Shown in pieces: positions 34,240-60,678 of a stretch of DNA of 64,000 bases. Each line of letters opens with the position of its first letter. The stretch's first letter is position 1. The translations under genes and the position numbers were made by a program. The notes under the pieces are model-generated. The model was not told the origin of the DNA. It worked only from the letters and a program-made list of their open reading frames with translations, and searched no databases. This DNA comes from Eledone cirrhosa (Eukaryota). The stretch is from positions 20,212,001-20,276,000 of the forward strand of contig OZ024763.1 in the NCBI GenBank assembly GCA_964016885.1, given 5' to 3'.

Positions 34240-34697
34240 TGTAAAAGTTCTATTTAAATTGTTGGGATACAACAAGCAAATATTTTTATAACTGATATAA
34301 AGCACTCAACAGATATTTGTCTGGTGTTTTGATATCTCTCTCTCGTTTTTCTCTCTTTTTTCTTGTTTTCTTTCTTTCTTTCTTTCTTTCTTTCTCCCTT
34401 TTCTCTCTCCGTTTTTTTTCTCTCTCTCCGTATTTTTCCTTCTCTGTAACACAACGACTTATTTTTTTTAAAATAAAAATATCCAATACTAATATAAGTA
34501 AACAACTCCACTATCCCGGAGTCTTCCAACAGTAATGGTTGCATTTTGTAAGGGTATGTCAATATTTATTTATAAAACCGATATATATTGTATTTTGTCT
34601 GATGAAAGCATACCATAATTTAACATGGTGTCCTTGAAATATGTATAATAAAATAGATATGGTTTTTTAAATATAGTTTCCATTTGATAATATCGTA
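34240..34697 (+). mobile_element. Family B element (inverted tail plus hammerhead-bearing body, core at 34599)
   Basis: tattttgtCTGATGAaagcatacca...tggtgtccttGAAATATGTATAataaaata; 34240-34310 is the reverse complement of the family B tail. Confidence 0.8.
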
Positions 34698-34775
34698 TAT
34701 ATATATATATATATATATATATATATATATATATATATATATATATACATATATATATATATATATATATATATA

Positions 34776-35231
34776 TATACAATGATATTAAATAAATGGA
34801 AACTATATTTATAAAACCATATTTGTTTTATTATACATATTTCAAGGGCAACCAAGACAACATTGGTGCGCTTTCATCAGATAAAATACAAAGTTTGTTT
34901 TATAAATAGAGACATACCCATGAAAATCATACCTTATCGGTTGGAAATTCACTGGGTAGTCGATAGTCCATTCCAACCGATAAGGTATGATTTTCATGGG
35001 TATGTCTCTATTTATAAAACAAACTTTGTATTTTATCTGATGAAAGCGCACCAATGTTGTCTTGGCTGCCCTTGAAATATGTATAATAAAACAAATATGG
35101 TTTTATAAATATAGTTTCCATTTATTTAATATAATTGTATATTTACTCCAGTAATTTGTTGAGTGCTCTAAATCAGTTATAAACATTTATATTTGTCGGA
35201 CTTCCAACAAATTAAATACCACTTCTACTTA
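34776..35231 (+). mobile_element. Family B fold-back: ~170-bp inverted arms, 24-nt spacer and ~90-bp tail, in (TA)n
   Basis: Arms 34776-34946 and 34971-35141 are nearly perfect complements. Confidence 0.9.
35009..35111 (+). ncRNA. Type I hammerhead ribozyme (family B), predicted cleavage after AUA at 35085; mirror copy on the - strand in the left arm
   Basis: CTGATGA at 35037; stem II AAGcGCACCAA/TTGGcTGCcCTT; GAAA at 35074; stem III AUAUGUAU; stem I UUUUAU/AUAAAA extended by UAUUUAUAAAAC/GUUUUAUAAAUA. Confidence 0.8.
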
Positions 35232-35927
35232 ATATATATATATATATATATATATATATATATATATATATATATATATATATATATATATAAATATATA
35301 TATATATATATATATATATATATATATATATATTACTTTGATAACTTTAAAACGTTTCGGCCAGTATTGACCCAGGTTATGCCTAATTTAATAGCACCAC
35401 CACACACACACACACACACACACACACATATATATATATATATATATATATATATATATATATATATATATATATATGGGTAAATATCTTTAAGTCGTTT
35501 GGAAGCCTCGACCATGCAAATGGGTAAATCTCCGGGTAACAAGATCCGGTGGTGGAGAGAGAGATGTAAGTGGGTGTACGTTGAGATGCGTGGTGTGTAT
35601 ATGACGTGTAGAAGAATGAAGGGAAGAGTATAAAGGATAAAATAAAAATAAGAACACGAGAGAGAGTTACCTTGGGAGAGATTTAATTGTCCCTATATAT
35701 TTCGGATTCACATCCATCAACTGAGGGTTTTTCCGGGGTGGGGGAAAGGTTGTCTGTCGGAAAGGTGCGAAACGCGTCCTCCGCTGTTTGTTGTTTTGAA
35801 TATCTGAGGTATTCAGCAGAGCGCGCGTGCGTGCGCGTGAAATGGGGTCGGTCGGGCAGAGGTCAGCGGCCGAATGTGGGAGTGGGGTGGTGCTAGCTGT
35901 CAGTCCATTCTCTGCCTGTTTGTTAAA

Positions 35928-36030
35928 TGTTAGTATTCAGTTTTGGTTTTAAGTTTTACCGGTTGCGCATTTCTAATGCTTTTCAAAAATAATTTTGAGA
36001 TAGAGCGTCCGTGATGTTTGCTCTAATCTG
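35928..36030 (-). mobile_element. Family N dispersed element
   Basis: Same sequence at 37872-38105 (opposite strand) and 60715-61015 (there with inverted arms). Confidence 0.75.
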
Positions 36031-36430
36031 ATTAGTTTTGGAAATTGTACCTGTTTTTATGTGAAAAAAGTGGCTCCAGACGTATTAAAATAAGTTTCGC
36101 GCCAATTCGTGTTGCAAAAATTCTTGTGGTCAAAACAATTTTGATTGGTCGGTAGAGGTCATGTGAATGTTAAAAATTGATTTTGCGCCAAATGTAGGTT
36201 TGTGTCGACTGATTGAGAAGTCACTGAAAAATAAGTCTTTCAAAACAAATATGTGTGTGTGTAGTAGTAGTAGTAGTAGTAAAGAGATTCGTTGTTGTGA
36301 TAATGGTCAGCAGGGATGTGTGTGCGTACCGCAGCTTGTTGACTCTTTTCCGACTACCCTAAGTATCGAGTACTCTGGTGCGTTATGGTCCACCTGGTTC
36401 CTTACCAGACTTTCTTCGTTCATATATATA

Positions 36431-37153
36431 TATAACGGCGGCGAAGATTCGAAACCGAATCTGAGCTTTCCCGCCTCTGGGACAAGAGACTAACCCCTTG
36501 GGAGAGGCTAAACACAGGTCAGAGGATATATCCATCTTTCTGACTTGTTTACGCTTGGCAAACTAATCCCTTGGGAGACTAACCAAAGTTCGGTGGATAT
36601 ATCTATCCTTCTAACTTCAACTCTTATAAATACAGGGGTTGTTCACGCCCCGCCAGAAAAGAAGTGCTATACAGACAAGACAAGTCGCATTTACAAGCTC
36701 TCGTCACGAAAAACCAGTCTACCACTTATTCTCACCTTCCTGGCTGATCGCTGACTCCTGCAATACAAATAAGTAAATATACTGAACTCACCATTCATTT
36801 CTGTTTACACATATTGTACCTTTCTGATGCAGTACACATTATATTATAATCGTATTCTGTATAAAGTACCAGTAATACACTGGGAAATTGCTGGCCTTGT
36901 GCCTAACGTAGAAACAATTATAATCGTATTCTGTGATTCTTGAATTTACGTGACTCGAAGAGCCACCAAATTATTGTATGAATATTTTGTGTTATTGATT
37001 TTATCATTCAATATTCAAATTGAATATTGTTATAATAAAATAAACTTTGTAACAACACAATCCTGGTATTTTTCTTTACATCGAAACCACCATACCAACA
37101 GTTACATCCATCCATCCACTTATCGTTACAACCACACATAATATTGCGTTACA
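36431..37153 (+). mobile_element. Probable solo LTR in (TA)n with a nested truncated SINE
   Basis: Termini TATAACG (TGTAACG-like)...CGTTACA; TATAAATA at ~36625; AATAAA at ~37034; internal direct repeat ctaaYcccttgggag. Confidence 0.6.
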
Positions 37154-37259
37154 TATATATATATATATATATATATATATATATATATATATATATATAC
37201 ACATACTCGCTCATATATTCACACAGCTTATGCTGAAAGAATAACTATGTTGCTTGTGT

Positions 37260-58289: not shown

Positions 58290-58525
58290 TTATCTCTTAT
58301 TTTAAATTCTGATGGAGGACTAACGTCCGAAACGTTAAGACTATTTTCCTACTACATCATGGGTAAGAAACTCCCAGAAGAACTGGACAGCAGAAGGCCT
58401 TCAGAGAAGAAACCCCCGCCCTGATGCAAGTGTTTCGTCTTTTAAATTCTGAAATACTTACATGAGGTGGTGAGGGGTTTCTTCTCTGAAGACCTTCTGC
58501 TGTCCAGTTCCCCTAAGATTCTTAC
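58290..58525. mobile_element. Family C hammerhead fragment (core at 58309) abutting a separate fold-back (58362-58525)
   Basis: CTGATGG-aGGACtaacGTCC-GAAACGTTaaga; arms gaactggacagcagaaggccttcagagaagaaacccc / ggggtttcttctctgaagaccttctgctgtccagttc. Confidence 0.7.
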
Positions 58526-58884
58526 AACTATATTTCCACTGTACTGTGACGTTTCCATGTGTTGCTTAGCCGTTTACTATAGTCTGGAGTCGACCCAAGC
58601 TATGTAATAGCATTAGAATGCTCCCTGGGTTGTTAATTGTCTGAAAGCAGACGATATAAAATGGTTTTTATTTAGGCACAAGGCCAGCAATTTTGAGGGA
58701 GGAGGAAAATCGATTATATCGACGCCAGTGCATTACTGGTACTTATTTTATCGATCCTATAAGGATGAAAGGCAAAGCTAACCTTGGCGGTATTTGAACT
58801 CAGAACATAAAGGGCCGTAACTCTATGCCGCTAAGCATGTTGTCTGACGCACTACCGATTCTGCCCTCAGCAGACGATGTATAA

Positions 58885-59300
58885 TTCTTCTTATCGTATC
58901 CATAAGAGTGTCGGCTACAAAGCTTGGCTAGATGTGGTTCCACCACAGCTGAACACACTGCTGTCCTTTCTCATTAAAATCTGCCAAGTCCAATTGCTGT
59001 GCAGGGGTGTTCATGAGGTGCGGCGTAGTCTGTGGTTCGATGCCGCAGTCACACACAACGTCCTCATCATTTAAATATTCCCTTTTTGCAATATTGGCTT
59101 TTTCACGTCCAACACCAGGTTTTAGTCTATTGAAGCATTTCCACACAGCACAGTCGAATGGTTAAGACGTTCATTTAGGAATCATTAGGTTCCTGGCTTG
59201 ATCCCATACTGTGGCATCATCGACAGTCGTTTACCTTAGCTTCAGGTCCACACAATACTTGTGACTGAAATCTTGTAGACGGAAACTGCGTGGAAGCCCG
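58885..59300 (-). pseudogene. C-terminal fragment of a non-LTR retrotransposon ORF (RTEX-like zinc knuckle)
   Basis: WKCFNRLKPGVGREKAN...CDCGIEPQTTPHL. Confidence 0.65.
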
Positions 59301-59704
59301 TCGAATGGATTATACCTGCAAGTCTTTCAATATAAAAATATGGTGATCCATTTATTATATATATATATATATGTTTATGCCCTTGAGAAGCCCAACTGGG
59401 CGAAACGTACGTAGGTGATATTTTAAATAAACATGTTTTAACGGTCTATTCTCCGATTTTTCACTTTCCCACGTATATATATATATATATATATATATAT
59501 ATATATATATATATATATATATATATATATATATATATATATATGATTTCCTTCGACTGAAACAGTTCTAGTCCTGTAAAGGCCATTTCTATATTAAATT
59601 GTAACATACACTCTACTAAAATTTTGAGTACCTTACTTACTCCAGTTACCCCCGATTGTACCCGGAAGTCTCTCTCTCTCTCTCTCTCTCTCTCTCTCTC
59701 ACAC

Positions 59705-60090
59705 GTGTGTGTCTTTTGGGAGGCTCCCGTACAGCTCTGAGTTCTTCATCCTCAGTGTATACTGATTAATGTTCAGAGCCATCCTCAGCATTCTCGTGTA
59801 GCACCCAAACGTCAGCTCAAAGGTAGCACAGAGGAGACTGGGGTTGGCTGGACATGCTCACCGACATCCAGAGTTGATACTGCACCCAGTGCTCCCGTGG
59901 GAGCCCTTGCATGGACACACTGGAAGAGGGAGACCGAGGTTGACATATGTTGATGCCCGAAGGACAGACGCTGGTCTCTGGGAGACGCAGGACATGGCAG
60001 CGATGATGAGGGACAGAGACCGTTGAGGAGAACTCGTCCATGGATCTAGGAAATTTTACTCGCCCTAGATAGATAGATAGATAGATAGAT
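59705..60090 (+). mobile_element. 3' end of an RTE-like LINE with (TAGA)n tail; second copy at 61029-61253
   Basis: LAGHAHRHPEL...[19 protein letters not shown]...MRDRDR. Confidence 0.8.
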
Positions 60091-60233
60091 ATGTGTGTGT
60101 GTGTTCAGGTGCGAGTTAATTGCGTCCATAGGCGATCTGCCTAATGAGTACTCGATGCTCTTTGCTCCCTTATATAGTAATACTATATATATATATATAT
60201 ATATATATATATATATATATATATATATATATA

Positions 60234-60678
60234 TACGATATTAACAAATGGAAACTATATTTATAAAACCATATTTATTTCATTATACATATTTCAAGGA
60301 CACCACATTAAATTATGGTGTGCTTTCATCAGATAAAATATAATATAGAGCAGTTTTATAAATAAATATTGACATACCCTTAAAGAATGCAACATTTACT
60401 GTTGGAAGCTCCCGGATAGTAATACTTCCAACAGTAATGGTTGCATTCTTTAAGGGTATGTCAATATTTATTTATAAAACTGCTCTATATTATATTTTAT
60501 CTGATGAAAGCACACCATAATTTAACTTGGTGTCCTTGAAATATGTATAATGAAATAAATATGGTTTAATAAATAGAATTTCCATTTGTTAATATCGTAT
60601 TTTTACTCCAAATAATTGTTATCAGTTATAAAAATATTTGCTTGTTGTATCCCAACAATTTAAATAGAACTTTTACAT
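60234..60678 (+). mobile_element. Family B fold-back with ~175-bp arms and tail; hammerhead core at 60501 with mirror copy in the left arm
   Basis: Arms 60234-60408 and 60425-60600; stem II AAGcACACCA/TGGTGTcCTT. Confidence 0.9.

Follow-up and report, generated by a model that had tools for sequence, protein, structure and literature searches.

An unpaired cytosine fixed in stem II of hammerhead motifs at the 3′ ends of Hydra-clade Penelope-like elements in Eledone cirrhosa

We analyzed a 64,000-nt stretch of the Eledone cirrhosa genome (assembly GCA_964016885.1, contig OZ024763.1, positions 20,212,001 to 20,276,000; hereafter the window, numbered from its first letter) in which a short hammerhead motif recurs on both strands. 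The motif is almost certainly a type I hammerhead fold lying at the 3′ end, or pseudo-long terminal repeat (pseudo-LTR), of a Hydra-clade Penelope-like retrotransposon, and our main concern is an unpaired cytosine within its stem II. The original prediction, made from this stretch alone, had named four copies with a shared core, and these are all present: CUGAUGA begins at 34599 (+), 35037 (+), 60501 (+), and 49583 (−), each time followed by GAAAUAUGUAUA. Its copy number was too low, however, and it recognized neither the host element nor a stem III suited to forming dimers. A scan together with a covariance model built from 26 representative motifs (the four window copies being among the 26, so that their own scores are high by construction) finds three more, at 34880 (−), 60332 (−), and 37593 (+), making seven. 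Six of the seven have an intact core, and the one at 37593, in which U4 is replaced by C (CCGAUGA), is likely dead owing to that change. Positions within the motif follow the general hammerhead numbering.

The copies lie in several insertions, labeled A to E. In insertion A (34314..34700, +), what is left of the element is its 5′-truncated 3′ untranslated region (UTR) and 3′ end, after which comes (TA)n; it has 75–89% identity to the 3′ ends of the copies L031 and L188, which bear an open reading frame (ORF); at its 5′ end, blastn to element ends finds an inverted copy of the 3′ tail (34237..34314, −) adjoining (TA)n. It holds copy 1 (34591..34655, +; core 34599–34605, C 34609 opposite C 34632, GAAA at 34636, predicted cut after 34647). 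Insertion B (34777..35227) is an inverted repeat (34781–35136) of the element 3′ end plus tail, flanked by (TA)n and 94.5% self-complementary, and carries copy 2 (34824..34888, −; core start 34880, C 34870 opposite C 34847, predicted cut after 34832) and copy 3 (35029..35093, +; core start 35037, C 35047 opposite C 35070, predicted cut after 35085). The altered core at 37593 sits in insertion C (37578..37793, +), a 5′-truncated 3′ end with tail. Insertion D (49363..49599, −) is the 3′ end of a GGA-type subfamily, truncated ∼16 nt upstream of the core and 84.5% identical to the 3′ end of L190; its copy 4 (49525..49591, −; core start 49583, C 49573 opposite C 49548, predicted cut after 49533) has A at the first stem II position, a minority state within its own subfamily, which is mostly GGA/UCU (G·U first) among the 100 matches listed of 6,957. 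Insertion E (60233..60682) is again an inverted repeat (60233–60600) of 3′ end plus tail flanked by (TA)n, 92% self-complementary, with copy 5 (60276..60340, −; core start 60332, C 60322 opposite C 60299, predicted cut after 60284) and copy 6 (60493..60557, +; core start 60501, C 60511 opposite C 60534, predicted cut after 60549).

A tblastn search with the element proteins finds no ORF remnant in the window, where the element is represented by 5′-truncated ends only. Insertions B and E are each predicted to fold into one long hairpin in which the motif is buried. Since the motif would be buried in the inverted copies, and since the window copies are truncated remnants, any selection would bear on the master elements only. 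Folding z-scores of single copies are weak (−0.4 to −1.9), and the support for the fold is therefore comparative. No hammerhead appears among 19 Rfam matches in 34480–35200, which is weak evidence because the Rfam models expect other stem sizes, nor among the 150 matches listed of 371 for the whole window; the Rfam matches in the window were set aside as microsatellite or hairpin noise.

In the element itself, the motif stands in sense orientation after a reverse transcriptase (RT)-endonuclease ORF and a long 3′ UTR, ∼55 nt from the element end. The element is 4.2 kb long, with a 1.7-kb 3′ UTR and a single ORF for an RT with a C-terminal GIY-YIG (L188, L182, L189, and L032). In L188, a full-length tandem copy, two motifs stand 4.17 kb apart, one at each end, and an inverted end is also present; insertion into (TA)n and tandem and inverted pseudo-LTR structures are seen in the window insertions and in L188. 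The ORFs, which lie between hammerhead copies, contain YRDD, RWR, SDKT, CxCX5C (CNCRNKSNC), a GIY-YIG-like VVY..YVG, CxxC (CDLC), and CxH (CRH), with one C between VVY and YVG and no CCHH. In the sections of Craig et al. (2021; PMC8557442) that define it, the Hydra clade is marked by RWK-type, DKT, CxCX5C, CxxC, and CxH motifs, no CCHH, and a (TA)n target. Three ORF pieces scanned against Pfam had no match, and the identification comes from these motifs and from homologs: Out of 7,995 database proteins scored, 370 are homologs at E 1e-20, the best with 40–48% identity, and the closest (P0001–P0005 and P0009) include two named Argonauta hians. A scan of viral contigs returned no relative. In three contig sets from one sample, the repeat is present with depth concentrated at the element 3′ end; among the sequencing runs listed as carrying it, none is of RNA.

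There are >100,000 copies of the motif in the 3.0-Gb genome. A strict pattern has 17,619 exact matches genome-wide compared with none for a reversed control, so the motif is not a chance occurrence. For comparative analysis, the four window copies were aligned with 22 others picked one per subfamily, by signature, from 458 fetched. The motif has the core, the NUH triplet with A15.1–U16.1, and the three helices open at stem I that characterize a type I hammerhead. Among the 26 representatives, the core (CUGANGA and GAAA) is invariant; in the triplet, U16.1 is likewise present in all, and H17 is A in 23, C in two, and U in one but never G. Across the three helices, 16 of 18 pairs show changes on both sides, stem III being counted as a palindrome only. 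Stem I covaries, with pairs 1–4 formed in 24–26 of the representatives and pairs 5 and 6 fading to 19 and 17; a long, bulged stem I, as first described, is predicted for the three AAG-type copies only, and across lineages only four to six of its pairs are conserved. The three bases that follow the cut (1.1–1.3) are purine-pyrimidine-purine in all 26.

The 8-nt stem III is self-complementary in every representative and shows double changes at its two adjacent central bases. Being adjacent, these two central bases cannot pair within one molecule, only between two motifs. Such a palindromic stem III implies cleavage as a dimer, as is known for Penelope hammerheads. Two inverted hammerhead pairs (L147:2178–2310 and L053:2475–2651) have their junction at the cleavage site or just past it, not upstream of the core, and these junctions may record reverse transcription of cleaved RNA. 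Of 15 lineage consensuses, 11 have a poly(A) signal (AAUAAA or AUUAAA) no more than 35 nt past the predicted cut, and none has one within the 30 nt upstream, so that cleavage would take the poly(A) end off. A similar hexamer also follows several metagenomic Hydra hammerheads.

Stem II consists of three pairs, a C·C mismatch, and then six to seven further pairs in all four copies first named, and its sequence varies while its pairing stays, both as predicted; the latter holds in the larger alignment. The seven ordinary pairs are formed in 93.9% of cells, and all seven show changes on both sides. Their covariation score is 0.917; 500 shuffles give 0.336 ± 0.035, and sliding the strands gives no more than 0.204, although the shuffles ignore relatedness and the comparison is not a probability. 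The claim that stem II opens with A-U rather than G-C is true of the named copies but not of the motif in general (A-U in 15 representatives, G·U in six, U·U in four, G-C in one).

Position 4 of stem II is unpaired in all 26 representatives. A C·C mismatch had been expected always, and here the two strands part ways: The 5′ C is constant, whereas the opposing base is C in 21, U in four, and A in one, and large C·U and C·A subfamilies exist. By parsimony the 5′ C changes not once, compared with two to eight times at neighboring paired positions, and the base opposite changes four times but never to G. What stays invariant is thus the 5′ C and not the C·C pair: It is this base as such that matters, beyond the mere presence of a mismatch. 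The base after it (10.5) is a purine in all representatives.

Since the representatives were picked by signatures that include the C, it is the genome counts and listings that provide unbiased evidence for its fixation. With an AUAYRUAU stem III and relaxed first pairs, position 4 is C·C in 75,426 matches, C·non-C in 5,163, and non-C·non-C in 427, a control pattern for the last class giving 56. The C·A subfamily makes up about 36 of 100 C·non-C matches listed, which extrapolates to some 1,900 copies. Another 31,002 matches have AUGNNCAU as stem III; 30 that were fetched comprise 16 of a C·U family and 14 of a C·C family, and all 100 matches of this type listed have the 5′ C, as scored by eye. 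Stem III is ACAYRUGU in 1,871 matches, mostly C·U among those listed. Among 85 copies of one family with changes at the mismatch, 20 have G, 16 A, and 49 T, and a C-G repair arises in dead copies at the ordinary rate. Nevertheless, in the patterns searched and matches listed, no amplified subfamily was founded by a point change at the mismatch, C-G included. Together with the double-sided changes at all seven pairs, the failure of mismatch variants to found any subfamily seen bears out the predicted selection on RNA structure in the master elements.

On trees of the RT built from elements of this genome and database homologs (published Hydra consensus proteins being compared by eye only), all elements of this genome and eight database proteins form a branch with 96% support, outside which fall nine metagenomic relatives. 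The C·A subfamily is nested within C·C lineages (91–97% support) and the large C·U family adjoins C·C lineages (97%). The unpaired C spans carriers down to 54–61% identity in the RT core, counting those in which ORF and hammerhead are firmly linked; L182, L376, L370, L422, and L438, for which that link is unsure, were left out. Of 78 related metagenome loci, 47 gave a hammerhead. Of 48 distinct hammerheads from related elements, 46 have a standard pair at position 4 and none has C·C or C·U there, and the first pair is U·U in 20, G-C in 18, G·U in five, A-U in four, and A·C in one. The Hydra magnipapillata rows listed in PMC8557442 are mostly U·U at the first pair. An opening pair other than G-C is thus a habit of the Hydra clade, while the unpaired C, as read from copies in this genome, appears particular to the branch that they form.

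On balance we lean, without great confidence, toward a hammerhead that cuts a tandem precursor as a dimer at the 3′ end of the Hydra-clade element and whose fixed unpaired C makes a base-specific contact. Pairing via stem III would join two motifs, either within a tandem transcript or from separate transcripts; a cut after AUA (AUC in some lineages) would release unit-length RNA and sever the downstream poly(A) signal; and the unpaired C would dock either on the protein that the element encodes or on stem I, at the place taken by loop 2 in canonical hammerheads. A more specific version, possible but doubtful, is that the activating contact of the hammerhead has been rebuilt, the invariant unpaired C in the long stem II replacing loop 2 and docking on stem I or on the element's own RT.

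Several observations weigh against this interpretation. We found no docking partner base, and nothing covaries with the mismatch. U at 1.7 occurs in 11 of 15 lineages and 20 of 26 representatives, not clearly above its neighbors, which are nearly as constant, and as a docking partner it is a weak lead only. At position 4, C-G does occur in one small family whose stem III has 8 nt (about five of 100 matches listed of the 1,871; L436). The AUAUGUAU duplex is predicted to be weak (−2.2 kcal/mol), and animal Penelope hammerheads cut poorly in vitro, according to the parts of PMC4209133 that report their activity. As to the counts, the absence of changes at the C among the representatives is partly by construction, and the class with a non-C opposite C (703 of 17,619) was counted for the strict pattern only.

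The main rival explanation, which we consider unlikely, is that the mismatch serves as a brake, weakening the three proximal stem II pairs so that slow cleavage, or cleavage dependent on dimers or protein, spares full-length tandem transcripts for copying. The energy model gives a cost of ∼6.7 kcal/mol for C·C in place of C-G (copies 34599 and 60501), the first stem II pair is often weak too, and in the patterns searched no amplified subfamily has a Watson-Crick pair at position 4. However, any mismatch would serve such a purpose, yet the 5′ base is always C while the 3′ base varies; the three core-proximal pairs are still predicted to form at 0.85–0.98 despite the mismatch; and relatives thrive without one. 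The constancy of the C, next to a partner that varies, speaks for a base-specific contact over a plain brake.

It is less probable still that the C, after a single origin in the ancestor of this radiation, has been carried along without a role. This would agree with the confinement of all carriers to one Hydra-clade branch, with the relatedness of the lineages, whose counts are not independent, and with the lack of the feature in the 48 outgroup hammerheads. But every neighboring stem II position changed two to eight times on the same tree, and the distal stems are unrecognizable between lineages; moreover, single-base changes at the 5′ C are common in dead copies (4.0%) and founded no subfamily seen. 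We give a similarly small chance to a structure that does not cut, or does so marginally, and is instead read as a 3′-end signal by the element's RT. Its position so close to the 3′ end would suit such a role, as would the weak in vitro cleavage noted above; the function of the hammerhead is also called unclear in the portion of PMC8557442 that discusses it. Against this, the catalytic core and NUH triplet are invariant and there is covariation in the dimer palindrome, just as catalysis would require. Finally, template switching in short inverted repeats can alter both arms of a hairpin simultaneously, and the element does form inverted structures, but that the covariation is a DNA-level by-product and not the result of RNA selection is barely credible: Template switching would erase the mismatch, whereas changes to the base that would pair show no excess in the 85 copies above or in two further locus sets (six of 30 and none of 30), the sense strand retains its G·U pairs, and covariation extends to three separate helices surrounding a core that does not vary.

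One base is as constant here as the catalytic core, throughout many subfamilies and >100,000 copies. A rebuilt contact with the RT would, if true, mean protein-gated cleavage and offer a first handle on the role of Penelope hammerheads in retrotransposition. With C·C, C·U, and C·A all occurring naturally, and with stem III ranging from weak to strong, the subfamilies amount to a ready mutational series in which the missing contact or cofactor could be sought. Descriptor searches that require a perfect stem II overlook whole families.

The window contains other repeats. At 46608–46660 (+) is a 3′ end remnant of a related C·U family with a AUGCGCAU stem III, which has lost the 5′ half of its hammerhead. 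A repeat at 21423 (+), 37408 (+), and 44152 (−) has GAAA before, not after, CUGAUGA. Minimal-type hammerheads with an extra base after A9, a short stem II, and an ACGU palindrome lie at 45150 (+), 47255 (−), and 22791 (−), and an inverted pair of another hammerhead at 49817 (−) and 49901 (+) has a U·U first pair and a 3-bp stem II capped by GAAA, resembling published Hydra magnipapillata motifs. At least four more dispersed families have a hammerhead-like core, some with a long stem II: 61649 (+) and 48893 (−); 46861 (−) and 2692 (−); 46109 (−) and 45409 (−); and 23202 (+). A tandem array from 2991 to ∼10500 holds ∼160 copies of a 45-nt unit that are 90–95% alike. An abundant unrelated repeat of 60–190 nt (11923–12616, 15279–15461, 24574–24766, 42681–43767, 55386–55779, and others) is also inserted in element copy L367.

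The closest known systems are the Hydra-clade hammerheads of Craig et al. (2021; PMC8557442), which, in the sections that describe them, are alike in protein motifs, (TA)n target, a sense type I motif near the 3′ end, inverted 5′-truncated copies, and a first pair that is often not G-C. Those elements are generally <3 kb with a stem III of mostly 9–10 nt, compared with 4.2 kb and 8 nt here, and by eye none of the Hydra hammerheads listed there has a mismatch at position 4. The minimal and small-palindrome Penelope hammerheads (Cervera and de la Peña 2014; PMC4209133) are, in the text that characterizes them, type I motifs in pseudo-LTRs with a long stem II and short stem I; they share a palindromic stem III that suits dimers, many subfamilies with compensatory changes, and opposite-strand pairs 100–700 bp apart. 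In their minimal consensus, A9 is followed by an additional base and there is a G10.1–C11.1 pair, whereas the motif here has neither; that text describes no conserved internal C mismatch, although one sea-urchin example listed has C·A at position 4. The Penelope hammerheads with a short stem III of Lünse, Weinberg, and Breaker, as summarized in PMC6765202, are also alike in a palindromic short stem III and dimer cleavage. For an internal C mismatch in stem II, we found no description in the hammerhead or Penelope literature, subscription papers and figure images lying outside that scope.

Canonical type I hammerheads and non-LTR retrozymes have the core and topology in common with the motif. 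The canonical form, as outlined in part of PMC11875169, has a 4-bp stem II whose loop touches stem I (a U1.7 Hoogsteen pair), whereas here stem II continues past the mismatch. Non-LTR retrozymes are short tandem repeats; we rejected that identity because the copies are not short noncoding tandem repeats but the dispersed, truncated ends of an autonomous ORF-bearing 4.2-kb element. The structure is real and selected, and it belongs to a known kind of element: The new detail is small but sharp, and the system is not of a new kind.

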